Positions 1 to 32,000 of a DNA stretch of 32,000 bases are shown in pieces. A model generated the notes under the pieces. It saw only the letters and a program-made list of their open reading frames with translations. It was not told the origin of the DNA and ran no database searches. A program made the translations under genes and the position numbers. Numbering within the stretch: position 1 is the stretch's first letter; every line of letters begins with the position of its first letter. Source of the stretch: Candidatus Saccharimonadota bacterium (GTDB taxonomy: Bacteria > Patescibacteriota > Gracilibacteria > Absconditabacterales > Absconditicoccaceae); the NCBI GenBank assembly GCA_965231145.1, contig OZ246420.1:750001-782000 (forward strand). Direction: 5' to 3'.

Positions 1-1265
1 GAATGTGCTTTGCCGGCGTCTCGGCTGCAGGTTACTGTACTCTGGAGTTTGGGCGAGGCACACCAGAGGGGGATTACATTGCAAGAGTACTTTTAACAGG
101 TAACAGTAATGTATTGGATAATGTAACTGTGGGTGCATCATCTCCTTTTTATACTCATTATAATACATGAGTAACTCTTACGGGAGGACAATCATATAGC
201 ATAACCATAAGAGTAGGAACTTTCCCTTGATCTACTCAATCAGTAGCTGCTTGGATAGATTACGATCAAAATGATGTATTTGAAGCAAGCGAAAAACTAT
301 GAGAAACAACATCTATGGGGCCAGATACTTATACCACTTTTTCTTTTTCAGTACCAATGACATGAGTCAATGGGACAACAAGAATGCGCGTATTGGAGTC
401 GTCATACGGTACAAATCTTGATCCATGTGCACCAGCATGGCTCTATGGAGAAACAGAAGATTATGACATCACTCTCATATGAATGGCAACAGCGGCTCCC
501 ATCGGTGGTGAAGGTTATAGAAAACTCCCTATAGACAATTGTCCGGATAAAGATATTTCGCCTACACCCTACGATGGGTTATGCGCGGGCATGAGTCCGT
601 TCATTGGTGGGATACTGGCCGACTCAATTAATACTGCTACAGCAACTGGATCAAATAACATGACCGGAGAGGTGTCGTTCTCTACAGGAGATATAAACAA
701 CGATGCGACAACTGGAACCCATGAACTTATAGAGGATCCTTCTTCTATGAATGCGGCAGCCAGATGTACAGATAGTGAAGAACAAAGTGCATATGAGTTT
801 TGAATGAGTCATGCGATAACATCAAAAGAGACATGCCTTTCGGCTGATATGAATGGAGGGCTCATCAGGATCGATGCAGCAAAAATGATAGTAAATTTCG
901 CTATGAATGTACTCGACAGAAGACCAGATTCGACCAAAAAATGTGTATTTAATGATATGACTGATCAATCAGTAGAGACACAAGAATATGCATTAAAAGC
1001 CTGCCAGCTTGGTCTTATGGGGCTTAAGGGAAATGGGACTCCTGCTGCGATGTTTCACCCAAATGAACTCGTTAATAAGGCTCAGTTCGTCTCTGCCCTT
1101 TCAAGATTACTCTATGGAGAAGCTCACAACTCAAAAAGAACATGTCGATATTGTATGCATGCACAGGCACTCAAGGATGCTTCTATTATAAATCTCACCA
1201 ACGATCTTATGCAGCCTATCAAAAGAGGTCGAGCAATAATCATGTTCATGAGAGTAACAAAATAA
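1..1265 (+). CDS. Surface protein, 5'-truncated by the window: GEVED domain + Cys motif + SLH-like C-terminal module
   Basis: The frame starting at nt 3 is open to TAA 1263-1265 if six in-frame TGAs are read as Gly. This joins track ORFs 483..803 and 804..1265. GEVED-like signature: AAWIDYDQNDVF...GTTRMRV...DPCAPAWLYGETEDYDITL. Followed by DNCPDKDISPTPYDGLCAG and an SLH-like tail (ACQLGLMGLKGNG..FHPNELVNKAQFVSALSRLLYG). Confidence 0.8.
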
Positions 1266-1267
1266 AG

Positions 1268-1288
1268 CAGCCGCCACAGGCTGTTTTT
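1268..1288 (+). terminator. Rho-independent terminator-like hairpin
   Basis: cagcc-gccaca-ggctg stem-loop followed by TTTTT, directly after the TAA of the surface-protein gene. Confidence 0.55.
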
Positions 1289-1342
1289 CTCTATTTACTA
1301 AAGTAATGCGATTTACTATAATGTGTAAACTATCATATTCAT

Positions 1343-1627
1343 ATGAAGAAAACTCTCAGAACGTGTCCACAGTGACACCAATACTATAAAAGTTCGGACT
1401 GCCCAACATGTCCGTTTTGTGCAAATGAAAAGAAGCCTACAAGAGGTTTTCTTACAGAGCTGTCTGCACCTGCAAGGCGCGCATTACAATCTGCAGGTAT
1501 TCGTACTATAGAGCAACTGGCAGCTCATACAGAAAAGGATCTACTCACACTCCATGGGTTTTGACCTGCATCGCTCCCCATACTCAGAAAGATATTACAT
1601 GCGCATAAACTCTCTTTTAAAAAGTAG
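1343..1627 (+). CDS. Small zinc-ribbon + helix-hairpin-helix (RpoA-CTD-like) protein, 94 aa
   Basis: ATG 1343 to TAG 1625-1627 with two in-frame TGAs. CPQ-G-HQYYKSSDCPTCPFC is a four-Cys ribbon. The C-terminal half, LSAPARRALQSAGIRTIEQLAAHTEKDLLTLHGFGPASL, is HhH-like. Absent from the standard-code track. Confidence 0.7.
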
Positions 1628-1672
1628 CATGATTGCTATTATCCGATCATATTTAGTTCATATATCTCTCTC

Positions 1673-2545
1673 ATGCAAAAAATCACTCCTTTCCTCTGGT
1701 TCGATAAACAGGCTGAAGAAGCTGCACAATTTTATACTTCTCTTTTTAAAAATGGTTCCGTGGGAACTATCGCTCGCTATCCTGAAGGCGTGCCAGGGTG
1801 ACAAGCCGGTTCAGTTATGACAGTATCTTTCTCGATAGATGGAACAGAATTTGCTGCGATCAATGCGTGACCTATCTTTACGCTCAACCCTTCCGTATCA
1901 TTTTTTGTAACGTGTCAATCCGCTGAGGAGGTAGAGATGTATTGGAACAAGCTTATAGAAGGTGGAAAAGCACTTATGGAGCTTGGAAGTTATCCGTTTA
2001 GCGAAAAGTATGGATGGGTACAGGACAAGTTTGGCGTGTCATGGCAGTTATTTATGTGACCGGAAGCAAAGCCGATCAGACCATGTATGATGTTTGCGAA
2101 CGCTATCTATGGAAAAGCGGAAGAAGCTATGAGTCTTTATACTTCACTTTTTGACAACTCTCAAATTGTGTTTACTGCACCTTACGAGGCGCCACAAAAA
2201 GGAGTGATGCATGCTGTATTTATGCTCGACGGTCAGGAAATTATCGCTATGGATGCCCATGGAGTACATGGATTTGATTTTAATGAGGCGATCTCATTTG
2301 TTATCAACTGCGATGGCCAGGAAGAAGTAGATCACTTCTGGAACAAGCTCATCGCTGATGGCGGACAAGAAAGCCAGTGTGGATGGCTTAAAGACAAATA
2401 TGGGTTCTCATGGCAGATAGTACCAAAACAACTTTATGAATATCTTGGTGGATCAGATACTGCCGGCGCACAAAGAGCAACACAAGCTATGCTGCAGATG
2501 AGAAAACTAGATATTGCGACATTGAAGCAAGCGTATGAAGGGTAA
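1673..2545 (+). CDS. VOC-superfamily protein with two tandem PF06983-like (3-demethylubiquinone-9 3-methyltransferase-like/PhnB-like) domains
   Basis: ATG 1673 to TAA 2543-2545 with three in-frame TGAs. The family pattern occurs twice: ITPFLWFDKQAEEAAQFY...GSVMTVSFSIDG...VSFFVTCQSAEEVEMYWNKL...YGWVQDKFGVSWQ, and again in track ORF 2087..2545 (...ISFVINCDGQEEVDHFWNKL..CGWLKDKYGFSWQIVP). Confidence 0.85.
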
Positions 2546-2814: not shown

Positions 2815-2946
2815 ATCGCTTTAAAAAACGAGATAAATGTATGGCCTTTTTTAGAGAATAGTGCATGAAATTGCAATCTAAGAGCAAGTATGGCACCACC
2901 ATGCCATAAAAAAACGTTAAAGGGCCTTTTTATCGCCCCAAATTTG

Positions 2947-2974: not shown

Positions 2975-2980
2975 CTGCTC

Positions 2981-4684
2981 ATGCATTGAACAGACACAAA
3001 CACTCCTAAAGAAGTCTGGGATAGATACAGCTCACATCAGTGGGTATATTTTGCAGAAGAAATAAAACAGAGAATTTCATTTTTTCTCTCTGATAGACTA
3101 TGGGGTAAAAATCTTGAACTTGGTGGTGGCTGGTATTTGACTCACCCCGGTTCTACCGTAGTAGATATCTCTCCCAAGGCATTGGAGTACAATCCAGCCA
3201 ACGAAAAAATAGAATTTGACTTAGATGATATCCAACTTGGAAGGAAATTACCTTTTCCGGATCATAGTTTTGATCATGCTACGATGATTAGCGTCTATCA
3301 GTACCTCAAGGGAGGAAAAAAGTTCAGAGATGAATTAATGAGAGTATTGAAGCCTGGTGCTGAACTCTATATTATCAATATGAATGGCTGAGGGTCAGGC
3401 CTCTGAGATGGAGTCGTACAAGGCTCTACTCATATCGGTCCCATAAAAGAAGAATTTTCCAAGGCAGGATTTGACACACTCGTAGAAAATATTCCTTTCC
3501 GTGCTGACATCGCAAAGGTGCAATCACTGTGTGTTGCCATGCCTGATATAGATTTATTTGGACCAACCCATGGACAAATTCGCGATCGTTATGGGAGAGA
3601 ACGTATAAATGCGATCTACTCTCATTATAAACCATTTTCTTGGAGGCTACATAGCCATGATGAAGATGAAGATATCAATGATGACACAAGAAGCATTGAT
3701 CATTTCACGCAAGTATATACCAAGCGAGAACTCAGAAAAATGAATGATCTGTTTTATAAAATCGCTACATATCCGCTAACCGCCTTTAGTGTAGAGTATA
3801 GAAAATCCCTGCAAGCATTTACTGACGAGTGCTTAGCGAAAACAAACTGTATTCCGATCATCACTTCTTATAGCTATAATGAGATCAATATTGATATGGC
3901 GACAAAGGATCGTCCTCTCTACTTATCCTTTCATATCATGGGGAAGACAGGAAAAGTTTCCTATGAAGAAAGGGAAGAAGTAATGAAAATAGCAGAAAAG
4001 CATCGTATACAAGGCTCAAATACATCAGGTCGTTTTAAAGGTAATACTCCGGATGAAATTATTGCCAACTACGAAAAGCAAGACTATGAGACACAATACA
4101 GCACCTTATACGATAATTATAGGAAGCAACCTTTTTCAGATACTGATCAACAGACAGTTATTTCGTTTCTTGCTGAGATACCTCTCAATAGTGTCACTAA
4201 AGAACTACAAGATCGTCTCTATGCGCTGGTAAAATCATGGTGAGCGAGAGATGAACTCATCCTGGCTGAGAAAGACAAGCAAAATATGATTGGCTGGAAT
4301 CATGACATTGCGCAGTGGAGAATCGATATGAAGGAACGAAAAGCTCGTCAAAAGAATATAAAAGATGATTATAATGATGACGAGGATGAACAACCAGACA
4401 AACCTCGGAAACCAGAGCTTCTTACCAGACCATGGTATTGCCAGATAGATACACTTATCACTAAAAAGAAAGCCCAAGGCTATATGGGCATGTTAATTCC
4501 TCGCAAACAAAGGAGAGAAGTTGATAGACTGCTAAAGCTGAAAGAACAGTGCGCTACAGGAGAAGTTGATATGGCAGAACGAAAGCACATTGATTATCTT
4601 GCTGTTATGCCTTATTTTCCAGAAATATTTGAACAGCGGGATACAGATGCATATAAAGGAAGTAAGATGAGCTCTGAAGATTAA
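2981..4684 (+). CDS. Class I SAM-methyltransferase-like N-domain fused to a large uncharacterised charged C-terminal region (567 aa)
   Basis: One frame joins 2981.., 3137..3391, 3518..4243 and 4286..4684 through four TGAs, ending at TAA 4682-4684. Motif I-like LELGGGWYLTHPGSTVVDISP, then FPDHSFDHATMISVYQYL...VLKPGAELYIIN. The rest is unrecognised and includes an acidic stretch HDEDEDINDD. Confidence 0.7.
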
Positions 4685-4749: not shown

Positions 4750-5382
4750 ATGAACACCCAAATCATTTCTGCAAGATTTATCATTAGTAGTCCAAACCTT
4801 GCTTTGTGTCCCGATACCCAGATGCCAGAATATGCATTTATCGGCAGAAGTAATGTTGGAAAGTCGAGCTTGATCAACGCGCTCTGTGAGAAAAAAGAGT
4901 TAGCAAGGACGAGTCCGAAGCCAGGGAAGACACAGCTGATAAACTACTTTACCATAGAAAGCAAAGATGAAGCAAATGGTATGCAAACCTGGAATCTGGT
5001 CGATTTGCCTGGTTACGGATATGCAAAAGTAGCAAAAGATGTTCGTAAAGAATGGGAACACATCATAGAGCATTATATGGTGAAAAGAAAAAATCTTGCA
5101 CATGTCTTTGTACTTATCGATAGCAGACATACTCCTCAAAAATCAGATCTCGATTTCGCCTATGGATTATATTCGTTTCATATACCTTTTTCTTTGGTCT
5201 TCACGAAGATAGACAAAGTTTCTCAAAAAGAGCTTTCGGCACATATCAAACTTTTTACACAAGAACTCAGCAAACTTATTGGTATCACCCCACCATGCTT
5301 CACTACCAGCGCAGAAAAAAAACAATCTGTTCAATTGCTTCTCAGTGCTATCCATGAGATGAACTCACAACTTCCTCGCTAA
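4750..5382 (+). CDS. engB: Ribosome-biogenesis GTPase EngB/YsxC (YihA)
   Basis: G1 motif GRSNVGKSSLINAL, G3 motif DLPGYGYAKV, G4-like FTKIDK. ATG 4750 is preferred over the TTG at 4735. Stop is TAA. No TGA inside. Confidence 0.9.
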   Translation: MNTQIISARFIISSPNLALCPDTQMPEYAFIGRSNVGKSSLINALCEKKELARTSPKPGKTQLINYFTIESKDEANGMQTWNLVDLPGYGYAKVAKDVRKEWEHIIEHYMVKRKNLAHVFVLIDSRHTPQKSDLDFAYGLYSFHIPFSLVFTKIDKVSQKELSAHIKLFTQELSKLIGITPPCFTTSAEKKQSVQLLLSAIHEMNSQLPR

Positions 5383-6599: not shown

Positions 6600-7409
6600 A
6601 TGCACAATCCATCCCTACACAATGCATCTGAGAAACCTGTTTCACAAGAAATAGAAAGAACTCATACCCATGAAATAGCAGACAACTTGTGATCAAATGA
6701 TATAAGCAACAAACTAGCATCCATTGAGAGTGTTGTATGAGTCGAACAAGCTAAAAATTTTAAGCAAGCTCTTGATATATGCGATCTAGAAGCAAAAGGC
6801 AGCATAGATACTGAAGTCGCGGAGAAATGGCTTTGAATAAAAAACAAACTCCTTACAGAGGTAAGCTATGAAAAGATACATGGAAAAAATTGTATTATCA
6901 TTCCTGTTCTGCCCAAACCTTGGTGCATAGAAGATGCGACTGCGATTGATTTTAAAGAAAAGTTCGGGCTTGATGTTTGCCCCTCTACATCTGATGGTCG
7001 TAGATTTTATAGCATGACATGAACTTGACTGGATAAGATTCCTCTTGATAAAAGAAAAATCCACATTCCTGATGATGAGATGTATAAGATACTTATAAAA
7101 TGGCTCAATAACGACCTACCACGAGATAGGACAAAAAATTCTTTTCTTGCCGACTGATATACCGGAAAAATCTTAGAGAAAATATGCAATCTTGGATATC
7201 CTGGTATGTATGGTAGTTTCGCTGTATGAGGATTTTGACAAGGATCGGAAGAGAAAACAGTGCTTGTAGGATTTACCGGAGAAATCATGTCTGCAGACGC
7301 CACGCCAATTATGTGACATTATCACACACTGGACTATAATAACAAAGGAGATCTACGCGTTTCAGAGGTAGTAAATCATATCAAGCCGCTTGTTCGTTTT
7401 TATGAGTAA
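6600..7409 (+). CDS. Hypothetical protein (269 aa), visible only under code 25; C-terminal half is weakly FISUMP/TIGR02145-like
   Basis: ATG 6600 to TAA 7407-7409 is open if nine in-frame TGAs are Gly. The standard-code track shows no + strand ORF here, only short antisense ORFs. C-terminal pattern ...HIPDDEMYKILIKWL...FLADGYTGK...GSFAVGGFGQGSEEK...MGHYHTLDYNNKGDLRVSEV..HIKPLVRFYE resembles the Fibrobacter paralogous-domain layout (low confidence). Confidence 0.65.
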
Positions 7410-7541: not shown

Positions 7542-9704
7542 CTATTTCGTAGGAATATAGTTCATACGTGCACTAATCACATATGATGAATCAGTCTCAT
7601 CCTTAGAAAACGCCTGATCCTTATATGCTCTAAACAACATGAGTCCAGCATCATGTCTTGAAACAGGATCAAGTCCAGCTCCATTTTTAATGATACCAAG
7701 TTTTGTTGCTACATCATTGTAAACTGCGTACCAAACACCCTGATCTTCAGGAAGATAACTCTTAAGGATCAGTCTTGTAAGCACTGCATTGAGTTCTGCT
7801 TTTGTAATGAAATCTGTTGGTCTGAACTGCCCATCAGCCCCTCACTTCATAAGACCAAGTTGATATGCGAGAGTGATATATTTCGCAAGACTTGGATCAG
7901 CAGTGTTTACATCGCTATAGTTGATAGTATCAGCTGTTGGCTTTCTACAAAGGACATTGATCGCAAAGTTTGAGAACATCTTTGCTGCTTGTTGTCTTGT
8001 CATAAAACCAAATGGCTCAAATGCATCCATGCTATTGAACATAGTCATATCATACGCATTGAGGAACATAAACGCTGTTTTGAACTCCTCTGTCGTCACG
8101 ATACCTGTTGAATCTATGATATTAGTAATCTCTTCTCTTTCAAAGCATTCATTATTAGGTATGTCAGGATTGAATACCTTAGCTGGCTCGATAGAGATTA
8201 CATTTGTATTCTTAACTGGTTGATTCACAACTATTGGTTTGACAGGCTCTGTCACTTTTACTGTCCCTACTAAAGGGATAGTAGCATACGGTGTTGGCGA
8301 ATTTCTTGCAGGACCAACCATTGATCATCCACCTCATCCTCCGCCTCCTCAACCAAATCATACGTTAGCAACCGGCGCTGTAGTCGTAGCAGTTGTCTCT
8401 TCACAGACAGAAAGGAAATCTCCTCCACCCATGTCATACACAGCACAGATCGTAATAGTATAAGCTGTTCCGTTACTCAATCCTGAAAGCGTATAGCCCG
8501 AAAGAGTTTTATCAATACCTGTCATCTCACCATTACCCGGAGAGTATGAAATAGTATATGAGTCAAGATTACTGAGATTTCCACTCATAGGCTCACTCCA
8601 CGAAAGATCTACGACACCCAGACCTCCTGTTGCAAGTAGATTAACGACAGGATATTTACATGAACCATCATCAGAGCTTGCTCCTGAAAGATAGTTTATA
8701 GCATCTGCATCGGTACATCCAGGTCAAAGATCGACCGTAGAACCTTCTACCATACCTCATTCCATGTAAAAGATGAAACGTCCTGGAATTTCACTGTTAA
8801 GACTAAGAGTATTGAGTGCATAATCACCCTCATCCCAAAGCTGATCTGTGGTCATGCCATTGAGTACGAGTCAACTATTATCAACGATAGAGTTATAGAT
8901 CGTTGCACTTCAGCTCACATTACCAAGCCCTATCGCAACACGGTTTCCATCATATCCTTCATCATTTTGATTTCTTATACTTCCATAGTTCACGATCACA
9001 TTGACGTCATCGTTCGTGTCATCCACATCGACAAGCATAATCTGAAATGTATTCCAGAGTCCTTCATTATCACTAGAACTATATGTTGGGATATTAATCC
9101 ATGTGGCAACGAACGCAGGACGCCCTTCGAATATCGTACGTCACCAGTAGGTGAAATCAGTATGACGGGCTCCGCTATTCCACAGAGCAATCACTTCACC
9201 TAACTGTTCATCATTTTCCAAGTCCAGACAGTATGCACATACTCATGGCTTTGAACCAAGAATCTCATTGAGAGGTTGGTCATATTCATACGATCCCTGC
9301 CCAAATGAAAGCGAACCATTTGAATTAACAAAAACTGCGTCATACATGGTACCATACCAGTTGATATCAAAACCAATAGGTATACCTTCACTTCCATTCA
9401 TACCATCAATTCCCATCCAACAGTCATCACATCCATACCCAAGACGAGTATCAAACTGAGGACGTTGCGTTTGAAACCATGTATTCCACCCAGACCACGA
9501 TCCGAGAGGAATAAGGTCTGAATCTCCTGAAGCGGGCTGCTGACAACCGATAACAAACCCACTTGCATCCAATACCACTGGTCAAAGATATGAAGCGCCG
9601 CTATAGTTTAGACACCCCAAGCCCGATGCTTCTGTCGAAGATCATAAAGAAAGAGCTCATGCTCACAATAAAATCCCAAATACCAAGAACAGTATCTTTT
9701 TCAT
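7542..9704 (-). CDS. Secreted surface protein (720 aa): signal peptide, NIDO (nidogen)-like domain, FN3 domain, poly-Gly linker, tandem SLH-like C-terminal module
   Basis: One frame joins 9243..9578, 8358..8588, 7842..8321 and 7542..7784 plus the unlisted stretches, through about 15 TGAs. Start ATG 9702-9704 (MKKILFLVFGILLGAGALSLG). NIDO-like: IGFDINWYGTMYDAVFVNSNGSLSF...VIALWN...NTFQIMLVDV..VNVIVNYGSI. FN3: VVDLSWSEP...YTISYSP...LSGLSNGTAYTITICAV. SLH-like: AYQLGLMKGGADGQFRPTDFITKAELNAVLTRL. TAG stop. Confidence 0.85.
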
Positions 9705-9895: not shown

Positions 9896-9916
9896 TTCTT
9901 AGGCACTGATTACTAA

Positions 9917-10400: not shown

Positions 10401-11360
10401 TTAGTCTATGGATTGTACAGAGGTAAATTCCCCCTTTACTACGATTTTTTTATCATATAGCAACTCAAACGAACGCACAGAGAGGACACTTTCAGTTCAG
10501 ATCTTTCTTGGTTCACCTACTAGTGATATACGTATCCCATATGTACCGAGAAAAAAATCATCGAGAGAAAAGTCTGATAAAAGAGTAAGTTTATCATAAG
10601 AAACAATCTTACCACCTTTTTTATCTTTATACACACATATCGTATTGAGAATGTCTGTTATGGTAGATCGAACAAATCACTCATTATTTTCCATAATACC
10701 TTTATAGTAAGGGATATGTTCCCTGTATTGCTCTGCCAATGCTATTAGTTTAAAAACATCGCCGTAATTATAGTTAACGCACTTGTTTTTTAAGGCAATT
10801 CTTGAAGTAATGGGTCCAACAGACTCTCCGACGAGTAAATGATCAGGAATTGTATTTACTCTATATGGCAATGAAAATGCCTCGAATGGAGATAGTATGG
10901 TATAAAAATAGTAATGACCATCTGCATTATCAGTAAATTCACCATGAACAGAAGATGTTCTTTCCTGCACTTTATCCTTTTGTGTCTCTATGTTAAATAT
11001 AAGGTTACCAATGGTCTCATTTCTAAATTTTACATTGATAAAATCACCAAATTTTCTTCCTTGTTTTGCAAGATACGTTGAAAATCATTCTACCATAGCA
11101 GGAAACATATCTGCTCCGTGTAAAAAGTCTTCTGACCATTCAGATGTATTAAATCTGCTAATAAATTCTTTTCCTCCGCGACCTACACACGGCTGGGTAT
11201 GATCTCTTTCTGTGAAAAAATCACCAGGTTGAGCCTGATACCTTATACTGGAAAGCGCGGCATACAAATGTGAACATGTATTATACCCGCGACCTATAGC
11301 CGGATCCCCCGGTAGTCCATAATGTTCGGGCTCACACCCTCCTCTATTATTTCCGTTCAT
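10401..11360 (-). CDS. Hypothetical protein (319 aa), orphan
   Basis: Joins track ORFs 11085..11363 and 10677..10970 plus downstream sequence through three TGAs, ending at TAA 10401-10403. ATG 11358-11360. The N-terminus has scattered Cys/His (GGCEPEHYG...YNTCSH...QPCVGRGG). No family recognised. Confidence 0.6.
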
Positions 11361-14621: not shown

Positions 14622-14795
14622 GCAGGATGTAAAAATGTAAAAAGTATTTCTTTGAGGTTTACAAAAACATCCAGTGAAATCAATGGCTGTTCTTTCAGGA
14701 ATACATACACATAAATATTAGAAAGAATTGGACTATATCTGAGGAGAAAAATCTATATATTATCGCCTGTAATGAATAGTTTATTTTATTTTATA

Positions 14796-15997: not shown

Positions 15998-16190
15998 ACT
16001 TACTTACATACTATTTTACATTTTGTATTCTATATTTTATATTAATACAAAATTCAAAATATAAAATTTAAAATAATTATAGGAAGTGTATGGATATAGA
16101 TTTGTTTTTAAAGTTATAAAAAGCAAGTTGCAAATAGCAGAAGAAATGATATATGTAAAGAAATTTTACTTTTTTACTGCACGAACTAGC

Positions 16191-19568: not shown

Positions 19569-20123
19569 CTATTGCCCTACTATTACTTTTGCAGCCTTAA
19601 TTACTTTCTTTGTTTCACCCTGCCTAATAGTGTAGCCAGCTTCGTACTCTTTGATGATTTTTCATTTCAATGCTGCGTCTGTTGTTTCTTCTACGCTCAA
19701 AGGCTCATGTAAATCGCTATCCGGATCCTGTCCTATGGTAGCGATTTTTTCAATTCAGAGAGATTGCAATGTTTTCATAGCATTATCATAGATAAGCTTT
19801 ACTCCATCCGCCCAGGTATTGCTTTTCATATCTTCCGGCATGTGTTCTACCGAATACGATAGTTGATCAATAATAGGCAATATCTTTTTCATAATATCCA
19901 CTATGCTCTCTGCTCTTTGATTTTTGCTCTCCTGTTCAATTCTGCGTTGATAACTATCAAAATCATATTTGAGCATCACATAATCATATTGTGCTTTCTT
20001 AGCGACTTCTTCTAAATTCTTTATTTTTGCTGACACGTCTTCATCTTTATTATCATTTGTCGCCGTCTCTGTATCAGTTGACTGTATCTGTTCCTCATGT
20101 GTTTGATCTTCTGCTTTTGTCAT
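19569..20123 (-). CDS. grpE: Nucleotide exchange factor GrpE (184 aa)
   Basis: Track ORF 19755..20123 has an acidic N-terminus and the coiled coil KNLEEVAKKAQYDYVMLKYDFDSYQRRIEQE. It continues through two TGAs to ...IEKIATIGQDPDSDLHEPLSVEE...GYTIRQGETKKVIKAAKVIVGQ, the GrpE C-terminal beta-domain pattern. TAG 19569-19571. Confidence 0.85.
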
Positions 20124-20769: not shown

Positions 20770-23700
20770 TTAATTTTTGATATGTCGTCCTTTTGCCAAC
20801 AACTCCTCTGCTTTCTTATATTTCATCTCTTCTTCTTTTCCCTCTGGAGAAACGACAGTAACAAGGTCATTTCTTCCATATTTCTTTCCACTAGCAGCTG
20901 GAGCCTGATGACTAGGAGCTTGCTCAATAACTTCTACCCCGTCATCCTCTTTAAAGGCATGCGCATAAAGCTGTTGCTTCGCCTGCTGATAGTTTTGAGG
21001 CTGCGCTTGTCTTTTTGCATACGGTGTAAACTCAGGAAGATCTTGCGATGCCTCTTGGAGTCTATTGAGCATAGCATGAGACTGTTGTTCCTCCGTAGCA
21101 AGGATAGTTTGTCCCTGCCCTGCTCTAAAGTCAGTGCGGAAGATAATTGCTATCGTCTCCTGTTTAATATTAAACATGAGCTGTTCAAATTTATCGAACG
21201 CTTCTTTCTTATAGATGATCAGCGGATCCTGCTGTGCATAACCGTAAAGACCAACCTTATCGCGAAGGTATTGCATATCATCGATATGAGCGATCCAGTA
21301 CTTATCTATCATCGCCAAGTAGATCATACGCAGCGTCTCATCTGTTACGCGTGGATCCACACCAGCAAGCTTTTTATCAAAATATGTCTCAAATGAAGTA
21401 ATAAGCTCATTACGAAGACTTGTGAGATTACGAACTTTGTCTGCATTAACAGGAAGCTGATCAAATGCAAAATCCTGTTTGATCGTTTCTATAACCTCTT
21501 GGATTTCCATTTGTGTTTTTTCGTATTTTCCAATCAACCCATCAACGATCTGTTCAATAAACCCTCTGATTTCTGCAACGGTTGATGTCTTATTTTCCTT
21601 AGTTTCTACTACGATATAAGGAAGCATTGATGGCTCTTCTTTCGAATCGAAGTGCTCTTCTTCTGCGTCCACAAATACTGGTTTCACATGTAACTCCTTA
21701 CCAAGAAGCTCCGCTTGTTCTCTTGGCACACATGTATCTTTATTATCATGAATCACCACTATTTCTTCTGCAAGTGATCTGATTTTTTCAAAATCAAATG
21801 TTCGATCAAAGCTTGGGAAATATGCATCTAGCTCATCCGTATTGAGCTTCGGCTGAGCAAATCCAGCCATAAGGACTAACTTCTTTATCTTCACACCTCT
21901 TCTTTCAAGCGCTTTCAATGCTACCGCAACTCCGAGACTATGCCCGACCAGCACAGTATGACTATTGAACTGAGCATTATCAGTGATAAATGTAATTTGT
22001 TCTTCAATATTCGGTTGGTCAGGATTTGGTAATGCTGGAATGATAACAACACCTCCCTTCGCTTCCAGTTCCTTCTTGAGCCATGGCTTAAAGTTTCCGT
22101 CTGGCCTTCCTTCAAATCCGTGGAGTATCATATAGTTTACTGTCTGTTGCTGGAGTGTGAGCATCTCATCACGCTTAGTATAGATCCTTTGTCTCTGACG
22201 ATTGATCACTGAATCGTAGTCGAAGAGATGTTTACGGATAGAAAAGTTCCATCCTTCCATCTGTTTCTGCGCACGGATGATTGATGAGCTAAATTGTTTT
22301 TGTGTAAGCTCAAGATTTTCAAGGTCGTCTTTCTTCATGAGAAATCCTGCTACTGCCTGTATCTTTTCACCCCCCATCTTACGCATAATCTCATCATCGA
22401 GCGCAACAAAGAAGACTGAAAGACCTGGATCTCACTGACGTCCTGCACGACCTCTGAGCTGATTATCAATGCGGCGTGACTCATGTTTTTCTGTACCAAG
22501 GATGAAAAGCCCATAGTGAAACTCTCTTTCTACTACCGTCCCCTCCCCTTCTATTGGTTTGATAGTAATCTTTGCAAACCACTGGTCTGGCTCTTTCTTT
22601 GCTTTATTAAAGTCGATACTGAGTAATGCACCTTCTATTTGGATCATTCCCTTTTCTGCTGAGCGAATTTGTTCATCCGAAAGATTCCAGGCTTGTTTAA
22701 TTGCCTCTATAGTATAGTTGAACTCTTTTTCAGAAAACACTGTTGCGACTGCTGCTTGCGGAGGGATTTTACTAAATGTATTTCCTTTGAGTGTTGATTG
22801 GATCCACTTCACATAGTTTGCGGCAACTTTTTCATGGAGTCATTTTTCCAATTTAATGTCTGTTCCACGTCCTGCCATGTTTGTTGCTACTACCACAGAG
22901 CTCATCTTACCTGCATTCGCCACTATTTCTGCTTCCTGCTGGTGAAATTTGGCGTTCAGCACGTAGTGCTGGATTTGTATCTGACGTAAGATGTTTGATA
23001 CGAGCTCTGACGTGTGGATGCTCGATGTTCCGATAAGGATAGGTATTCCTGCTTCATGGTAAAATTTGATATAGTCCACGACCGCTTTCCATTTTGCGTT
23101 TTGGTTGAAGTAGACCTTATCTGTCTGATCGACACGAATCACCTGTCTGTTAGTTGGTATGCTCAGTACTTCCAATTCGTAAATCTTTTCAAACTCCTCT
23201 CCTTCTGTTGTTGCAGTACCAGTCATACCTGCAAGCTTTTCGTAGATCTTGAAAAAATTCTGGTAAGTAATCGTTGCCAAAGTCTGTGATTCACGTTGGA
23301 TGTTCACATTTTCCTTTGCTTCGATGGCCTGGTGGAGACCTTCCGAATAACGTCTTCCCGGCATCGTACGACCGGTATGTTCATCGACGATGAGAATTTC
23401 TCCTTCATGCACGATATAGTCCTTATTGTCATGATAACATGCCTGCGCCTTGAGCGCATTTTCAATATGATGAATCTCATCAAATCCAAAATCTTTATAC
23501 AGGTTCTCTACGTTGAGGATCTTCTCAAGCTTCGCGATACCCTGCCCCGACAACGTCACATTTTTATTTTTCTCATCTATGTAGTAGTCTCCATCTTCTT
23601 CCTGCTTATCTTCCTTTTGGAGTACTTCCGCAAGAAATCCTTTCGGCGTTTTTTTCTTGTGCGCAGAAGGTGTGAGAAGACGTACGATCTTCGCATAGTA

Positions 23701-24456
23701 TGCATATTTCTCTGTTGGCTCAGCAGAAGGCTGAGAAATAATAAGCGGTGTTCTTGCTTCGTCAATAAGGATCGAGTCTACCTCGTCGACGATAGCAAAA
23801 AAGAGCGGACGCCATACCACGTTACGTTCTGAGAGCGTACGAGTTAAGTTGTCACGTAAGTAATCAAATCCAAGTTCACTATTTTCCACATAGGTAATAT
23901 CTTTTCCATACTCTTCACGACGAAGATGGATAGGTGTTCCTTTTACCACTGATCCACATGAAAGTCCGAGCCATCCATAGAGATACGCCATCCACTGGCT
24001 GTCACGAGACGCAAGATAATCATTGACTGTTACGACATGTACTCCTTTTCCTGCGAGCGCATTGAGATACGTTGGTAATGTTGCCACGAGCGTCTTACCT
24101 TCACCCGTTTTCATTTCCGAAATCTTTCCTTGGTGAAGCACAATACCACCTATAAGCTGCACATCATATGGTACCATATCCCACACAACAATCTGTCCTT
24201 TCACATCACACTCTGTTCATTTCATCCTTTTACATGCTTGCTTCACTGTTGCAAATGCCTCAGGAAGGATATCATCAAGCGTTTCACCTGCTTCAAGTCT
24301 TTTCTTAAATTCCGGAGTCTTAGCCTTAATTTGCTCATCAGTGAGCGAATCCCACTCTTTATCTAATTCATTTATCTTTTTTACCAATGGCTGAATCTTA
24401 TTCAACTGACGCTGATTGTAATCACCGGCGATAGCGCCTAATATACTAGTAAACAT
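20770..24456 (-). CDS. secA: Preprotein translocase ATPase SecA (1228 aa) with an embedded alpha/beta-hydrolase domain
   Basis: Four same-frame track ORFs (24217..24456, 22840..24204, 22432..22812, 20770..22386) are separated only by TGA. Walker [13 protein letters not shown]-like [64 protein letters not shown] motifs [38 protein letters not shown] stop. The C-terminal tail has no Cys-rich zinc motif. Confidence 0.95.
21607..22140 (-). other. In-frame YdeN/RBBP9-type (Ser_hydrolase-like) alpha/beta-hydrolase domain inserted in SecA (about aa 773-950)
   Basis: [42 protein letters not shown]..., nucleophile elbow VLVGHSLG (Ser codon 21937-21939), [28 protein letters not shown]. Flanked by the SecA scaffold helix (..[13 protein letters not shown]) and the wing domain. 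Confidence 0.7.
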
Positions 24457-24587: not shown

Positions 24588-24929
24588 TTACAAGACGTCA
24601 TCCCATGAAAATCTGAGTTCCTTTTCTTTATGTGGTGAAAATCGGGCGGTTGCTTGAGCGTACTGAAAACGATACGCTGAAGAAGCAGGGATAGCTACTG
24701 TTAAGAGCCCTGCGATGAAAAGTCCCGATGCAAGTAGTGCAAGAAGCGCATCGAGCAGGTCGCTTTGGCGAATAATAGACGCATGGTTCTCTCACTTATT
24801 TTTAACAAACTCCTGTACCGAAGCAATAATCTGCTGCTCCTGTACTGCATATTGTCATTGTGCAAAAATTACTCCTGAACTCCCCAGAAGCATACTCAAC
24901 AACGCTATAGCAAGTAGTTTGCGTTTCAT
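24588..24929 (-). CDS. Small secreted/membrane protein (113 aa) immediately upstream of secA, orphan
   Basis: ATG 24927-24929 to TAA 24588-24590 with two TGAs. Signal peptide MKRKLLAIALLSMLLGSSGVIFAQ. Second hydrophobic segment LLDALLALLASGLFIAGLLTVAI at about aa 58-80. 33-aa tail ...SAYRFQYAQATARFSPHKEKELRFSWDDVL. Not in the standard-code track, where an antisense ORF 24715..24957 is listed instead. Confidence 0.6.
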
Positions 24930-25077: not shown

Positions 25078-27285
25078 ATGAATATAGGTAATAAATGGTT
25101 TTTACGAACTAATAGTTTTAACGTGGCGAGAAGAAAAAAGAAAGTAGCGAGGAAAAGAAGCACTTTCGTCTTAGATAGAAAAAGATTGGGTATTATCATG
25201 ATAGTGGTATGAGCACTGTATTTCTTTTCAGTCTCATTTGCGAAAGATTCTCCAATATTGGGATTGTTCAATAGAATTGTCACACTGCTTGTAGGAGAAA
25301 TTGGTATACATATTTTTTTCTGACTGGCGATACTCGCGGGTATTATGACCCTTATCAAAGAAGGACTCACAAGAACTATTGTGAAACAGTTCTTTGTCCT
25401 TAGCATGATCATATCAGCGATCCTCAATTTTCCGGTGATCGAAGAACAAAGTATCGCCTACCAAGAGTACGGAGGATATATCGGCTGGCCGATCCTGTGG
25501 ATCTTGCAACGCATCTTTGGGGAAAATCCTTTCGCTATTAAGGCTCTCATTGTCCTGTTAGCAATAGGTGTTATCATATGGATCATCTGGGCGTTTAATA
25601 TTCCAGTGCCAAGACTTCCATCGGTATCTCTCAGAAGCAGTAACACAGGAAAACCAGCGATGGCGAAGAAAGCAAAGAAAGTCGAAGAAGACGAGGAAGA
25701 AGAGTACGAATACGAGGAAGAAGAAGAGGAAGGGACACTCCCTGTCGTCACGAAGAAAGGATCTGCTATCGGCGATAGCTTGAAATCAATGCTCAAAGAT
25801 AAGATACAGAACAAGATCAAAGAAAAAGAGCAGAAAGTTATTAAGTTTCCTAAAGATAAACCGACTTTTGACATCAGCCTTCTTCCGGAAGGAGCCACCA
25901 GTACATTCGACGTCGATCAATCATATCTCGAACAAAAAGCCATCGCCATTAAGGGTAAACTCGAAGAGTTCGATATACCTATCGATATTAAGTGATTCAA
26001 TGTTGGACCCTCGGTCGTACAGGTAAAAGTTGCACCACAGGAAGGTATTAGAGTATCATCTATTGAAAGTTATCAAAAAGATATCGCGCTTGCACTGAAA
26101 ACGAAGTCATTGCGTATACTCGCACCTATCCCGGGAACTGACGTAGTTGGTATCGAGATACCAAATCCAAAACCACAGATGATTAGACTCAGACAGATCC
26201 TCGGAAGCCCAGGGTTTGCAGAAAATATGAATAAGAACCTCACGAACTTAGTACTCGGAATTGGAATCGATGGAAAGAATATGACAAAGCCGCTTGAAGA
26301 CATGCCGCATCTCCTCGTAGCAGGAGCGACAGGTTCAGGTAAGTCGGTGGGAGTTAATACGTTTATTCTCTCGCTTATCTACCAAAATAGTCCATCGGAA
26401 TTGAAGTTCCTCATGGTCGATCCTAAGCAGGTAGAACTTGGTATGTACGATGGTATCCCATATCTTCTTGCTCCGGTAGAAACAAATCCGGATAAAGCAC
26501 TAAAGATATTGAAATGGGCAGTCAATGAGATGGAAAGAAGATATACGTTACTCAAAGAATATAAGGTGAAAAAACTCGATGAGTATAATAAGAAGATGCC
26601 TGCAGATGCGATGCCTCGTATCGTTGTAGTCATAGATGAGTTGGCTGATCTTATGATGAATAGAAATACGAAGAAAGATACAGAAGCATGTATTACAAGA
26701 ATTGCACAGAAAGCACGTGCGGTGGGAATCCATCTTATTGTTGCGACACAAAGACCATCGGTCGATGTCGTAACAGGACTTATTAAAGCGAACATACCAA
26801 CACGTATAGCATTTAGTGTGGTATCACAGATTGACTCAAGAACTATTCTCGATACGAAATGAGCGGAAGAACTACTCGGAAGAGGAGACATGCTCTTCAT
26901 GAGTGTGGATAGCAATACGCCAGTTCGTTTACAATGACCATTTGTCGATACGCCAGAGATCGAAGAGATCGTACAGGCCATCAAAGATAAATATATGAAA
27001 TGATTTACTGAAGATGATATCTACAACCAGGAACTCATGAATATCCTCTCAGGAAAAAATGTTGGTTCAGGTATGGGCGGATGAATGGGTGATGCAGGAG
27101 ACGATGAAGAACTCGTCAATCAAGCCACTCAGATCATCTTACAAACAAGAAAAGCATCTGCTACTCTCCTCCAGCGTAAACTCTGAGTAGGATTCGCACG
27201 TGCAGCCCGTATCATGGATATCCTTGAAGAACGCGGTGTTGTTGGTCCTCAAGAAGGAGCGAAACCGAGAGATATATATATGTAA
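25078..27285 (+). CDS. ftsK: DNA translocase FtsK/SpoIIIE (735 aa)
   Basis: One frame from ATG 25078 through about eight TGAs to TAA 27283-27285. N-terminal TM helices, acidic linker [47 protein letters not shown], Walker [13 protein letters not shown], Walker [25 protein letters not shown], winged-helix gamma domain [31 protein letters not shown]. Confidence 0.9.
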
Positions 27286-27389: not shown

Positions 27390-28457
27390 ATGGGCATGCT
27401 ACTTAAGTTAAACTCGATCATCCTCTATACACTCATCGCTTTCGTCTTAGCGTTACTCTTGTATCCGACATACATTAAGCTACTCAAACGCATGAAAGCG
27501 GGGAAGCTTCTTCGTGAAACAGCAGCGGGCGGTGGTATCGCAGAGATCTTCCAGAAACTCCACGGACACAAAGCTGGAACTCCAACCATGGGATGAGGCA
27601 TGTTTCTGATCATCATGTTTGTGTTAGTTGCACTCTCATTTGTGCTCCAACAACTAGGATACATTAACAATACGCTCTTCACCAGACAAGAAACCTATAT
27701 CATTCTCTTTGGTTTCTTTGGTATGGGTATCTGGGGACTTATTGATGATCGGCTCAATATCAAGGGTATAGGAAAAGGGAAAGGCCTTCCCGCAAAGCTT
27801 AAGCTCGTAGGTATGATTGCACTTGCGGCATGGATCAGTTACTGGTTCTTCGTAAAACTCGGTATTTCACATGTAAATCTCTGGCCGATACTACCAAATA
27901 CATTCATCGATATCGGTATTTGGTATCCTATTGGAACATTCATTCTCACACTTGCTATCACCAATGCCATCAACATTACCGATGGGCTCGATGGGCTCGC
28001 AGGAGGAATGATGGTCATTGTACTCGGCATACTTGCTATCGTAACATTCTTCTACGGATGGTATCTAGCAACAACAGTTATCGGCATACTTACTGGAGTC
28101 CTACTCGCATTTCTCATGTTCAATATCAACCCGGCAAGGGTCTTCATGGGTGATAGCTGAGCGCTCGCTCTCTGAGGAATCGTTTCATCGCTCCTCTACC
28201 TGCTCAATCTTAAAGAAGGGTTTTTCATCGCATTTATCATCCTCTTCGGTATCTTCTGGCTAGAACTTATCTCAAGTGGATTACAAATATTTTGGAAAAA
28301 GGTGTTTAAAAAGAAACTCTTCTCTATAGCTCCATTTCATCACTTACTGGAGCACTCAGGACAAAAAGAATACACTATCGTCATGAGGTTTTGGATCATC
28401 CAAGGACTTCTTGCAAGTGTTACTCTCATTCTTGTCTTCTATCAACTCTACAAATAA
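27390..28457 (+). CDS. mraY: Phospho-N-acetylmuramoyl-pentapeptide transferase MraY (355 aa)
   Basis: 27390..27596 and 27600..28160 plus the tail are joined through three TGAs. HKAGTPTMG-G-G, GLIDD, NAINITDGLDGLAGG, NPARVFMGDS-G-ALAL-G-G, APFHHLLE. TAA 28455-28457. Confidence 0.95.
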
Positions 28458-28517: not shown

Positions 28518-28530
28518 ATTTGAGTTAATC

Positions 28531-29868
28531 ATGAACAAACTGCAACGCACGCTTATCATAGGTCTAAAGATATTTCTCCTATGACTGATCCTCCATTTCT
28601 TCGTTTATAACATCATTACCTATATTGCGGGCCTCTCCGGAACAGTAATGGAAGTTATCTGGCTCTGGAAAGAGATCTTTACGGTAGGTTTTTTCGGATT
28701 ACTGGTCTACTATGTGATCAAATATAAAGAGCTCCATATCTTCAAAAAAGATAAGATGCTCTGGCGGCTCCAGTGGATATTTGTCGCGCTCCTTGTACTT
28801 TCATTTGTATTCACGCTTATAAGGGGGCTTAGCATCAGTATGTTTGTCCTCGCGTTCAAATATGATTTCATCGGCTACTTCATTTTCTTCACTTGTTATC
28901 ATCTCTATAGACATCTTCCAGAAAATACCGCCGAGAAACTAAGCAAATGGTATATCGCCATCATCAAAGTATTGCTTGTCTTTGCATTACTCTGGTGGTG
29001 TATTCTACTTATCAAACCGGGAGTACTCAAAATATTTGGTTATACAACACAGTCTATCGAAGGAAAAGTCGGTCAGCAACCACCTGCGGTGTATCGGACT
29101 GGCGAACATTCTGGATATCCAAGAAACCAGTTCCTCTTTGAAAGACCTATCAGCTGGGGATTTTTCCTCACGGCATTCTTCCCGCTTTTCTATATGTTCG
29201 TCCTTCAAAGAAAATCACTTCGCAAAACCCGGTTCTGGTGGGGTGTCTTTGCGCTAAACGTAATACTCACATTTTCAAGAGCCGCATGGGGTGCATGGAT
29301 TATAGAATTGATTATATTGGGAATATTAAATTATAGAAAAAATATTAAAAAATATCTCTTAAAAGTAGTTATCCCGATGATCGTCGTGCTTGCTGCGATA
29401 GCGTATATCGGAAGAGCACAAATTATCGACAGAAGTTTTTCAAACACCGGCCACATCCAACTGTTTGTACAGGGCCGGAAAATGTTTGTTGATAGTCCTA
29501 TTATCGGAGAAGGAGCAGCATATGTAGGACCTGGATCTCACCGGGACGGTGGTCTTGCTTTCAATCCTGAAAATCAGTACCTCCAGATACTTATTGAGTT
29601 TGGTATAGTAGGTTTCCTTTTATGGATAGCAATCTATATCTATCTCAACCGAGTTGGATTTAAAGATTTTTTCAAGCTTTGGAAAAGCAAAGATAAGACC
29701 ATACCTCAACATTATCGAATGACTCTTTCGATGAGTGTCGGCATGATCGGCCTTTCTATCTCATGACTTGTTCTTCATAGCTTCACTGACAGGATGATCG
29801 TCTACCCTATGATGGCACTTTTCGGACTCATTCTTGCCAATCACCACAAACTTAATTCTAAGAAATAA
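28531..29868 (+). CDS. O-antigen ligase/polymerase (Wzy_C) family polytopic membrane protein (445 aa)
   Basis: ATG 28531 is joined to track ORF 28648..29766 and the tail through two TGAs, ending at TAA 29866-29868. More than 10 TM segments. Family-like LTFSRAAWGAWIIELI and the periplasmic loop ...GEGAAYVGPGSHRDGGLAFNPENQYLQILIEFGIVGFLLW. Confidence 0.75.
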
Positions 29869-29871
29869 TGG

Positions 29872-30312
29872 ATGGATAAAATTTCTGACATTACGACATT
29901 GCGTAAAGAAGTCTTAAGCGCCACCTCTCCTCGTCTAGCCGAAGAATTGCTTTTGGTTTTATGACAAAAAGATCCTAAAGCGGAACAAGAGCTGAGGGAA
30001 CTTGTTGCAGGACTAAACAATGATGTTCTTTCAGCAGAAGAATATGAACAAGCAAGGAACATTGCTATCAGTTATCATATTCCATTTTCGATGGATAATA
30101 AAGCAAATGAACACATCCGAGGACAGAAAAAAGTAGTCAGCAAAATCTTTCTTCATAAAATATATCACAAAGACATTATTGCTGCGCTAATGGCAATCTC
30201 TTCCCATATAGTGTTTAATGGATGAACTTATCCTCACATGGATCAGTTACCTGCAGGATTGAATGAAAAAGATTCATATGATGTGTGGCGAGGAAAGCTT
30301 ATAAACGCATAA
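29872..30312 (+). CDS. Hypothetical protein (146 aa), orphan
   Basis: ATG 29872 to TAA 30310-30312 with two TGAs. Not in the standard-code track (only antisense 29841..30062 is listed). No motif recognised. Confidence 0.55.
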
Positions 30313-30357
30313 ATAATGTAGTTTTAAGATTTGTATTTTTAGTTTTACGTCGATAAA

Positions 30358-32000
30358 ATGTTCGTACGAAAATATCTGAAGCCATATTGGAAACTTCTTG
30401 CTTTAGTATTGGCTTTAGCCACTATTAACCAAGTATTTTCACTGTTAGATCCTCAAGTAAATCGCTGGTTGCTTGATAATTTTATCCTTAAATATAAGGA
30501 ACTCACACAACATGAGTTTGTGAGAGGAATAATGATAGGACTAGGATGACTTATTGGAGTTGCTATGGTTAGCAGAATAGCAAAAAACTTCCAGGATTAT
30601 TTTGTCAATGTCATGACGCAAAAGATCGGGATGCAGATCTATCAGGAAACTATTCGCCATGCATTTTCACTTCCTTACTCTGTATTTGAAGATCAGTCAT
30701 CAGGACAGCTATTGCAGAAGCTTCTTAAAGCACGTACTGACATAGAGAACTTTATTAAAAATCTCATTAATATTGTATTTGTGACGTTCGTGGTGATGGT
30801 CTTTGTCTTGATCTATTCGTATAGTGTTCATTGGGTTATAGGAGCAATTTATACCGCTCTCGTACCTTTAATGGCGTTTACATCTACAGCGCTTTCAAAA
30901 CGTATCAAGAAAGCACAGTCAAGCATCGTGAAAGAGTCTGCTTTGTTGGCGGGAACGACAACGGAAGCTATTCGCAATGTATCACTCATCAAGCTCCTAG
31001 GGCTCGAGAAGCAAGAGATGAATAGATTGGAAACTGCAAATACTGGTATACTGGGACTTGAATTGAAAAAGATCAAGATCGTAAGAACGATAGAGTTCCT
31101 CCAAGGAACACTTATCAATGCTATTCGTGTCGGAGTGATGGGAACGATGTTCCGGCTCATCTTTAAAGAGCAGATGACCTATGGTGAGTTCTTAGCCTTA
31201 CTATTCTACAGTTTCTGGATTATCAATGGTATGACGCAGTTTGGTGAGGTTATCAAGACCTACCAGGAAGCAAAAGCAAGTATGGAAACTCTTGATGATA
31301 TCATGCATATGGCGCCAGCGCCAGTACCTGAAAATCCTGAAGCACTCCCTGTCATCAGTTCTATGGCATTTGATCATGTAAGCTTTGGATACAGCGCGGA
31401 AAAAGAAGTACTTCACGATATAGACTGGAACGTACAAGCAGGGAAAACAGTTGCATTTGTTGGTCCATCTGGATCAGGTAAATCAACTATCATCAAGCTT
31501 CTTTGCTGACTCTATCCTGCAACCGCCTGAACAGTACGTATTAATGATGTACATATTAATACATTGGACGCTCACGTATTTGCACAACATCTTGGTATAG
31601 TCACACAGGATACTCAACTCTTCAACGGAACTATCAGAGACAACCTTCTCTTTGTCGCCCCAGATGCGACAGATGAAGATTGTATGAATGTACTGAGATG
31701 AGCTCGTGTTGAAGATATTATCACAAGCAATAAAGAGGGCTTGAATACAAGGATCGGCGAAGGATGACTCAAGCTTTCCGGAGGCCAAAGACAACGTCTC
31801 GCAATTGCCAGAGCGCTCCTACGTAATCCTGATGTATTAATATTTGATGAGGCAACAAGTTCGCTTGATAGTCTGATAGAAGCAGAAATTACTGAGACTA
31901 TAAAAGAGGTATCTCATCATAAGAAAGGACTTATCACCGTTCTTATCGCTCATCGTCTTTCGACAGTAATGCATGCAGATGTAATCTACGTCATGGAAAA
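30358..32000 (+). CDS. ABC transporter, fused permease/ATPase (MsbA/exporter type), 3'-truncated by the window
   Basis: 30358..30549 and 30565..31509 plus the tail are joined through five TGAs. Six-TM exporter domain. Walker [16 protein letters not shown]-loop GIVTQD. Signature [21 protein letters not shown]. Walker [14 protein letters not shown]-loop IAHRLST. Confidence 0.9.

Follow-up and report, generated by a model that had tools for sequence, protein, structure and literature searches.

UGA as a glycine codon and CGA and CGG as probable tryptophan codons in a 32-kb stretch of an Absconditabacterales/BD1-5 genome

Related codes and the reading frames of the window

Bacteria of the SR1 and Gracilibacteria lineages read UGA as glycine, a code listed as NCBI translation table 25, which PMC8629427 credits to Campbell et al. 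2013 and Rinke et al. 2013. This system is also marked by a tRNA-Gly(UCA) (G1:C72, C2:G71, G3:C70, U73) and by the loss of release factor 2 (RF2). In addition to UGA-to-Gly in this clade, Shulgina and Eddy (2021, eLife, PMC8629427) predicted with Codetta that CGA and CGG have passed from arginine to tryptophan in Absconditabacteria, a variant with tryptophan-type tRNA(UCG) and tRNA(CCG) (G73, no A20) and a tRNA-Arg(GCG) for CGU/CGC. The open literature seems to contain hardly any further work on the CGA/CGG prediction. The gTranslate preprint (bioRxiv 10.64898/2026.05.24.727570) assigns table 25 to GTDB class JAEDAM01, and the table-prediction tools in current use handle tables 11, 4 and 25 only (same reference). 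Here we describe the code used in a 32,000-base stretch (GC 39%) of contig OZ246420.1, called the window throughout. UGA as glycine is here an already-known code in the lineage where it is expected, and the window fits the published three-codon variant of Absconditabacteria: judging from sequence comparison, we put at about 0.88 the probability that its lineage, an Absconditabacterales/BD1-5 bacterium, reads UGA as Gly and both CGA and CGG as Trp, with UAA and UAG as the only stops.

The window resembles the table 25 system in UGA coding for Gly, in using only UAA and UAG as stops, and in a small, AT-leaning, Candidate Phyla Radiation (CPR)-type genome whose closest named relatives are SR1/Absconditabacteria, but it differs from it in that CGA and CGG, both Arg in table 25, behave as Trp, so that the other 63 codons are not all standard here. 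With the Absconditabacteria variant it shares all three reassignments, the rarity of CGA and CGG, the excess of CGA over CGG and the spelling of Arg mostly with AGA (in the window also often with CGT). In contrast to that variant, CGG reaches 14 per 10,000 codons in the window against fewer than 7 in all but one species (an approximate comparison, as the published counts are Pfam-aligned), and the GC content of 39% lies just over the published 0.26-0.38 (PMC8629427). The type of evidence differs as well, ours being mainly codon interchange between relatives and that of PMC8629427 Pfam-column inference. An arginine CGN codon has also been taken over by tryptophan in the low-GC lineages of Anaerococcus and RFN20 Bacilli, although these reassign CGG only and have no tRNA(UCG) (PMC8629427), whereas the window involves CGA, CGG and UGA.

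When TAA and TAG were taken as the sole stops, open reading frames (ORFs) of at least 100 aa approximately doubled in length, and dropping TAG or TAA as a stop instead gave a far smaller gain. A greedy set of non-overlapping ORFs with TAA/TAG stops covered 91% of the window and held 108 in-frame TGA, with a few spurious ORFs included; removal of those failing on codon usage and trimming of one N-terminal extension left an accepted set of 26 genes with 95 in-frame TGA spread over 22 of them, so that the roughly 100 counted by eye in an earlier, sequence-only reading of this DNA was a fair estimate. Twenty of these genes end in TAA, five in TAG and one crosses the window end. The claim that genes here are interrupted by TGA and never by TAA or TAG was borne out in the 16 genes with Pfam support (6,572 codons), whose frames contain 66 TGA, 0 TAA and 0 TAG and whose domain matches extend across the in-frame TGAs, while in their +1 and +2 frames TAA plus TAG (465) outnumber TGA (415). 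These 16 genes code for a GEVED protein, a PhnB-like protein, two methyltransferases, EngB, a NIDO/fn3/SLH protein, DoxX, PhnA/YjdM, RluD, GrpE, SecA, FtsK, MraY, a Wzy_C protein, an ABC exporter and a small alpha-CTD-like protein. The individual TGAs singled out by the sequence-only reading (27594, 28158, 28173, 22432, 31765, 26860 and 14889/14910/14973) are all real, in frame and in the context described.

As had been anticipated, annotation with table 11 fragments this DNA: SecA is broken into 538 + 126 + 454 + 79 aa and MraY into 68 + 186 + 51 aa, and the sole public annotation of this sequence, in the Logan assembly of run ERR4405440, breaks the genes up likewise and also omits 1343-1627, 6600-7409 and 14772-15017. 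Five genes had been named as missed by table 11 (1343-1627, 6600-7409, 14796-15017, 24588-24929 and 29872-30312); four of them contain no in-frame ORF of at least 40 aa under that table and the last yields just one 44-aa fragment, the proposed frame ranks first of six by codon usage in all five, and two have Pfam hits. The standard code, with the interruptions put down to pseudogenes, sequencing errors, selenocysteine or programmed read-through, has nothing in its favour except the in-frame TGAs as such. Ninety-five TGA but neither a TAA or TAG nor a frameshift in 26 genes, the essential secA, ftsK, mraY and grpE among them, an identical sequence assembled independently from three sequencing runs, and TGA positions that are kept or swapped with GGN in relatives make this explanation hardly credible.

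The best 120 MraY matches in a collection of 5.8 billion proteins are all close relatives, and the named ones include Ca. Vampirococcus lugosii (64%), Absconditicoccaceae (63%), SR1 oral taxon HOT-345 (61%) and 'Gracilibacteria' (61%). Going by best hits and not phylogeny, the host is an uncultured bacterium of the CPR that belongs to the Absconditabacterales/BD1-5 clade (GTDB class JAEDAM01) and is most closely related to Absconditabacteria/SR1. For the analysis of codon interchange the window was aligned codon by codon with relatives, and sites with conserved neighbours were counted; the relatives were L004, from a GTDB genome (FtsK identity 83%, with synteny extending from secA as far as the ABC gene), the more distant L005 (CAYOFF010000001.1; FtsK identity about 61%) and 26 metagenomic loci (L042-L067). 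L005 is titled 'uncultured Candidatus Peribacteria bacterium', and its FtsK (9185-11521) has in-frame TGA at Gly columns, with a Walker A motif that reads GAT[tga]SGKS, and CGA at a conserved Trp column; either its taxonomic label or the code assumed for this genome is probably wrong.

The meaning of UGA

The comparisons strongly support UGA as a glycine codon, and not a tryptophan codon, with only UAA and UAG predicted to terminate, because three independent lines agree: the columns of standard-code homologues, Pfam scores and the interchange of TGA with GGN. Regarding the first, the TGA at 22432..22434 (-) lies in the SecA motif GRAGRQGDPG (GRQ[tga]DPG, aa 675), where Gly is found in 3/3 solved SecA structures, and each of the MraY columns 69, 257 and 262 is Gly in 3/3 solved MraY. 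In the ABC exporter the TGAs at 31528 and 31765 (aa 391 and 470), ahead of the Q-loop region and in the GE[R/G]G[x]LSGGQ signature respectively, face Gly in all solved ABCB domains among the matches listed. GrpE aa 123 and aa 154 are Gly in 3/3 and 2/3 of the PDB homologues, and FtsK aa 595 and aa 620 in 35/35 and 28/35 standard-code FtsK proteins. The sequence-only reading had placed all three TGAs of the PhnA-like protein on invariant glycines, which holds for columns 40 and 47 (Gly in both solved homologues, PDB 2akk and 2akl) but not for the third, at 14973, which faces Gly in one of them and Lys in the other. PDB alignments of RluD reach just two TGA columns, both variable (Ala, Arg), and TylF-like PDB matches are weak, the alignment of DSFE[tga]LP with Gly being below significance. 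Altogether, about 12 of the approximately 25 TGA columns that could be assessed are dominated by Gly and none is Trp (P about 6e-8 against a Gly background of 7.5%), which upholds the glycine assignment of the earlier reading; the other columns fall in variable stretches.

Furthermore, when the same proteins were scored with either Gly or Trp at their TGA positions, 11 Pfam domains favoured Gly by about 59 bits in total. The largest differences were those of YjdM (+11.5; 81.7 vs 70.2 bits), ABC_tran (+10.8; 121.6 vs 110.8), Glycos_transf_4 of MraY (+9.1; 106.2 vs 97.1), TylF (+9.0; 36.7 vs 27.7) and GrpE (+7.3; 99.3 vs 92.0), followed by +5.6 (PhnB-like, 276.3 vs 270.7), +4.5, +2.0, +1.1, -0.3 and -1.5 bits. 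In the codon alignments, 79 pairings of a window TGA with a codon of a relative comprised 45 GGN, 22 TGA, 12 other codons and 0 TGG, and conversely TGA of the relatives faced window GGN in 109 pairings. The RluD TGAs at aa 12 and 158, for instance, are paired with GGN or TGA in up to 25 metagenomic relatives. TGA makes up about 13% of the Gly codons in the 16 genes with Pfam support. The selenocysteine form of the standard-code explanation has to contend with 95 TGA spread over 22 ordinary genes and with a Cys partner in only 1 of the 79 pairings; moreover, an Rfam scan of the window gave no family at gathering threshold, SECIS included.

Table 4, in which UGA codes for Trp as in Mycoplasmatales (and also in Hodgkinia, Zinderia, Nasuia and some Eggerthellaceae, several insect endosymbionts being among its users), is like the code of the window in that a reduced, AT-leaning genome has given its UGA stop a new meaning and gene calls made with table 11 come out in fragments. 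It would appear to find support in the MraY database translations of relatives, 16-18 of 120 of which carry Trp at the three TGA columns; this reflects gene calling with table 4 and is not evidence on the codon, and since these translations depend on the table chosen by the annotators the set is no independent test of Gly either. Public translations of this clade are inconsistent. We regard UGA as Trp as extremely improbable, given that standard-code homologues do not have Trp at any of the TGA columns, that Pfam speaks against Trp by the margin given above, that relatives never pair TGA with TGG and that the lineage is Absconditabacteria-like and unrelated to those using table 4.

CGA and CGG and the code as a whole

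The sequence-only reading had assigned the window to genetic code 25, and while its UGA-to-Gly component stands on all three lines of evidence, the retention of CGA and CGG as Arg does not: table 25 is an incomplete label here because both codons, as far as comparison with relatives can tell, behave as tryptophan codons. The 26 genes contain 26 CGA and 13 CGG, 39 codons in all, next to 107 TGG, which makes CGA/CGG about 27% of the Trp codons of the window. Per 10,000 codons, usage is 28 for CGA and 14 for CGG compared with 160 for AGA, 97 for CGT and 117 for TGG; the two codons are rare, and Arg is spelled with AGA, AGG, CGU and CGC only. In conserved context, 16 pairings at 15 window sites matched CGA/CGG with 6 TGG, 5 CGA/CGG, 2 Tyr and 3 other codons. 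Arg or Lys was not found in any of them, whereas AGA/AGG/CGT/CGC codons had an Arg or Lys partner in 82% of cases and never a CGA/CGG partner; the probability of 0/16 would be about 1e-12 if the pairings are treated as independent. In the opposite direction, 20 of 22 CGA and 8 of 11 CGG of the relatives (28/33 together) stood opposite a window TGG. In a pairing table of all 64 codons the sole departures from the standard class were TGA (86% Gly), CGA (87% Trp) and CGG (94% Trp), values close to those of GGN (88-91%) and TGG (87%) with their own class.

Individual positions agree with this pattern. Both CGA codons of SecA and four CGG of the Wzy_C protein face TGG in L004, and FtsK W480, which is Trp in 33/35 standard-code homologues, is encoded by CGA in L005. 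The CGG at 27750..27752 (+), in the MraY motif LIDD[?]L, falls on an aromatic column that is Y/W/Y in the solved MraYs, F/Y/W/'R' in the 120 relatives and TAT in L004. In addition, MraY and Wzy proteins as translated in databases contain columns in which Trp and 'Arg' are mixed without Lys (for example 89 R and 31 W at MraY column 335), as mistranslated CGA/CGG would yield, and many of these columns belong to the membrane protein Wzy_C; the Wzy search used a TGA-free fragment of Wzy_C and its hits seem mostly of the same clade, so these columns speak to Trp/'Arg' mixing and are not a standard-code test. Rescoring of Pfam domains with Trp or Arg at CGA/CGG gave a net +12.9 bits for Trp (TylF +9.5, 46.2 vs 36.7 bits; Wzy_C +4.8, 63.6 vs 58.8; and +1.2, -1.3 and -1.3 for the others). 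The PDB matches to the membrane domain of the ABC exporter were five variants of BmrA, which have Met at the CGG column and are uninformative here.

Several observations weigh against this three-codon assignment. Some TGA columns in variable regions have no Gly in homologues (ABC 384 and 448; FtsK 82, 306 and 642; RluD 158 and 290). The codon-pair counts are site-by-relative pairs and not independent events. Glycos_transf_4 and Ser_hydrolase, with one CGA/CGG position each, marginally favour Arg over Trp (by 1.3 bits each), and the nine aligned window CGA taken alone are paired with 2 TGG, 3 CGA/CGG, 2 Pro, 1 Tyr and 1 Gln. ARAGORN detected no tRNA at all in the window and, in the sizeable related loci scanned (L001-L005, L042-L065), no tRNA with anticodon UCA, UCG or CCG. 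Lastly, codon meanings drawn from comparative evidence would be compatible with some degree of ambiguous decoding.

The Pfam exceptions and the few CGA that face Pro or Gln would suit plain table 25, the assumption of current pipelines for this clade, under which CGA and CGG are Arg and the pairings with Trp are coincidences or true Arg/Trp substitutions. We consider this highly unlikely in view of the lack of Arg or Lys partners beside the 82% of real Arg codons, the 28 of 33 CGA/CGG of relatives opposite TGG, the net Pfam score and the Trp/'Arg' columns without Lys in MraY and Wzy, since Arg-to-Trp exchange is otherwise very rare. Alternatively, CGA and CGG, and possibly UGA, could be decoded ambiguously or be in transition, for instance with a mix of Arg and Trp inserted at CGA/CGG or with a different meaning for each of these two codons. 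The two codons are still rare, the partners of window CGA are more mixed than those of CGG, and PMC8629427 stresses that experiments alone can exclude ambiguous translation. This possibility nevertheless appears highly unlikely, as both codons pair with the Trp class as consistently as TGG does with itself, Arg and Lys partners are entirely missing, and CGA/CGG of relatives fall on conserved window Trp positions, FtsK W480 included.

Under the favoured reading, with UGA as Gly and CGA/CGG as Trp, the literature on related bacteria leads us to expect that a tRNA-Gly with anticodon UCA would read UGA, with RF2 lost, that tRNA(UCG) and tRNA(CCG) bearing tryptophan identity elements would read CGA and CGG, and that a tRNA-Arg(GCG) would serve CGU and CGC. 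No prfB-like gene is present among the 26 genes of the 32-kb window, and Rfam found no tRNA(UCA), tRNA(UCG) or tRNA(CCG) in the whole window or in a gap of the tRNA cluster of L058. The frequency of CGG, higher than in most Absconditabacteria, together with the share of CGA/CGG among the Trp codons, suggests that their reassignment is at a relatively advanced stage in the window lineage. The GC content and the CGG frequency, both above the ranges given for most Absconditabacteria, hint that the reassigned codons may have begun to rebound there. We see an even chance that the three-codon code, fixed and well advanced here and present also in relatives about 61% identical in FtsK such as L005, is in general use across much of JAEDAM01 and not a marginal prediction.

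Glycine at UGA is textbook knowledge for this clade and matters for annotation only: table 11 shatters genes and misses some, and table 4 writes Trp at 95 positions that are Gly. With table 25 the genes are joined as they should be, yet Arg is written at 39 positions that would be Trp, about 27% of all Trp positions. The DNA-level comparison provides independent support for the little-followed 2021 prediction of CGA/CGG as Trp in Absconditabacteria. Table-25 proteomes of these bacteria would carry Arg at about a quarter of Trp positions, many of which lie in Wzy_C and other membrane proteins, and would therefore serve less well for searching homologues, for predicting structures and for matching metaproteomic peptides, the last because trypsin sites are mispredicted. 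If the code is indeed broad in JAEDAM01, systematic Arg-for-Trp errors would be present in every table-25 proteome of these organisms, which would justify giving the code a translation table of its own.

Genes and other features of the window

The window opens with a GEVED-domain surface protein (3..1265, +), whose 5' end may lie beyond it and whose Pfam match (GEVED, 2.3e-18) spans TGAs; it contains 6 TGA (168, 228, 300, 363, 480, 801) and 3 CGA (54, 1146, 1230) and stops at TAA. It is followed on the same strand by a small RNA-polymerase-alpha-CTD/HhH-like protein (1343..1627; RNA_pol_A_CTD 1.6e-5; TGA at 1373 and 1562; stop TAG), a two-domain PhnB-like/3-dmu-9_3-mt protein (1673..2545; Pfam 3e-82 and PDB alignments; TGA at 1799, 1868 and 2057; stop TAA) and a methyltransferase-domain protein (2981..4684; Methyltransf_11) with 4 TGA (2987, 3389, 3404, 4241) and 5 CGA/CGG (3725, 4337, 4406, 4580, 4637). 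The EngB/YihA GTPase (4750..5382, +; MMR_HSR1) has neither TGA nor CGA/CGG and matches a contig of Logan ERR4405440 exactly. A hypothetical protein (6600..7409, +) contains 9 TGA and 1 CGA (7122) and is the best of six frames by codon usage; table 11 gives no ORF on the plus strand there. With 9 TGA in 270 codons (more than 3% UGA) it has the highest TGA density of the window; the gene call comes solely from codon usage and the absence of TAA/TAG, and no Pfam match was found, nor a homologue among the related loci compared.

The minus strand carries a NIDO/fn3/SLH surface protein (7542..9704, -; Pfam NIDO, fn3 and SLH) with 15 TGA. It includes the Gly-rich linker that had been described as spelled with mixed codons, and at 8307..8372 (-) it does read V A N V tga F G tga G G G G tga G G tga S M V G, with GGN and TGA alternating as glycine codons under the code proposed. 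Two further minus-strand genes are a hypothetical protein (10401..11360, -; best frame by codon usage; 3 TGA, 1 CGA at 10668) and a TylF-like O-methyltransferase (11983..12726, -; Pfam TylF) with 5 TGA (12541, 12529, 12418, 12370, 12097) and 4 CGA/CGG (12673, 12295, 12283, 12124). A repeat-rich, LRR-like surface protein with an SLH-like C-terminus (12759..14621, -; codon usage; 4 TGA, 1 CGG at 13446) comes next. The three surface proteins, 3-1265 (+), 7542-9704 (-) and 12759-14621 (-), share a similar C-terminal SLH-like module, and the motif DNCPxxDxSPxxYDGLC directly ahead of this module is common to the GEVED and LRR-like proteins.

The PhnA/YjdM-domain protein (14772..15017, +; Pfam YjdM; TGA at 14889, 14910 and 14973; stop TAG) may start instead at 14796 or 14811. 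It is followed by the RluD-like pseudouridine synthase (15038..15997, -; PseudoU_synth_2), with 5 TGA (15962, 15524, 15266, 15128, 15077) and 1 CGA (15044), a hypothetical membrane protein (16146..17219, +; 8 TGA, 6 CGA/CGG) identified by codon usage and a 53% identical homologue in L042, and GrpE (19569..20123, -; Pfam GrpE; TGA at 19755 and 19662; stop TAG). SecA (20770..24456, -; Pfam SecA domains) has 3 TGA (24217, 22840, 22432) and 2 CGA (21802, 20785). Its aa 775-945 (21622-22134, -) form an inserted alpha/beta serine-hydrolase domain (Ser_hydrolase 1.9e-9) with a GHSLG nucleophile elbow, which interrupts the wing/scaffold domain of SecA. The insertion is kept in L004 (76% identity across the full 1,229 aa), and a search with the insert among 5.8 billion proteins yielded no more than 5 short fragments; they come from close relatives, and one joins SecA_SW and Ser_hydrolase. 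A small hypothetical secreted or membrane protein (24588..24929, -; 2 TGA, 1 CGA at 24642) is identified by codon usage and a 47% identical homologue in L004.

The remaining genes lie on the plus strand. FtsK (25078..27285, +; Pfam) contains 8 TGA (25210, 25321, 25993, 26860, 26935, 27001, 27082, 27184) and 1 CGA (25105), and MraY (27390..28457, +; PDB columns and Pfam) 3 TGA (27594, 28158, 28173) and 1 CGG (27750). The Wzy_C/O-antigen-ligase-like membrane protein (28531..29868, +; Pfam Wzy_C) has 2 TGA (28582, 29764) and 7 CGA/CGG (28765, 29095, 29230, 29476, 29542, 29650, 29716), and a hypothetical protein recognized by codon usage (29872..30312, +) has 2 TGA and 2 CGA. The ABC exporter (30358..31998, +; Pfam ABC_tran), with 5 TGA (30547, 31507, 31528, 31699, 31765) and 2 CGA/CGG (30367, 31153), crosses the window end.

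The ORFs 6126-6311 (-), 9948-10187 (+), 2779-3009 (+) and 18106-18363 (+) and an N-terminal extension of 7542-9992 were set aside as probably spurious, being not the best frame or having a negative codon-usage score. Four long gaps of about 500-700 bases (5954-6599, 9705-10400, 18011-18506 and 20124-20769) hold no convincing gene under any code tried; the small ORFs within them (6126-6311, 9948-10187, 18106-18363 and 20239-20520) have poor or ambiguous codon-usage scores, and the Rfam scan gave no match in these gaps. Outside the window, 1-2.3 kb upstream of its start, L001 carries a tmRNA (tag ANSNMRLSAFNYAYAA) and a tRNA-Leu(CAG) at 372-721 and 1659-1743. The same pair adjoins rluD in the 77%-identical L042 (8493-8955), and the gene order there is therefore rearranged with respect to the window.

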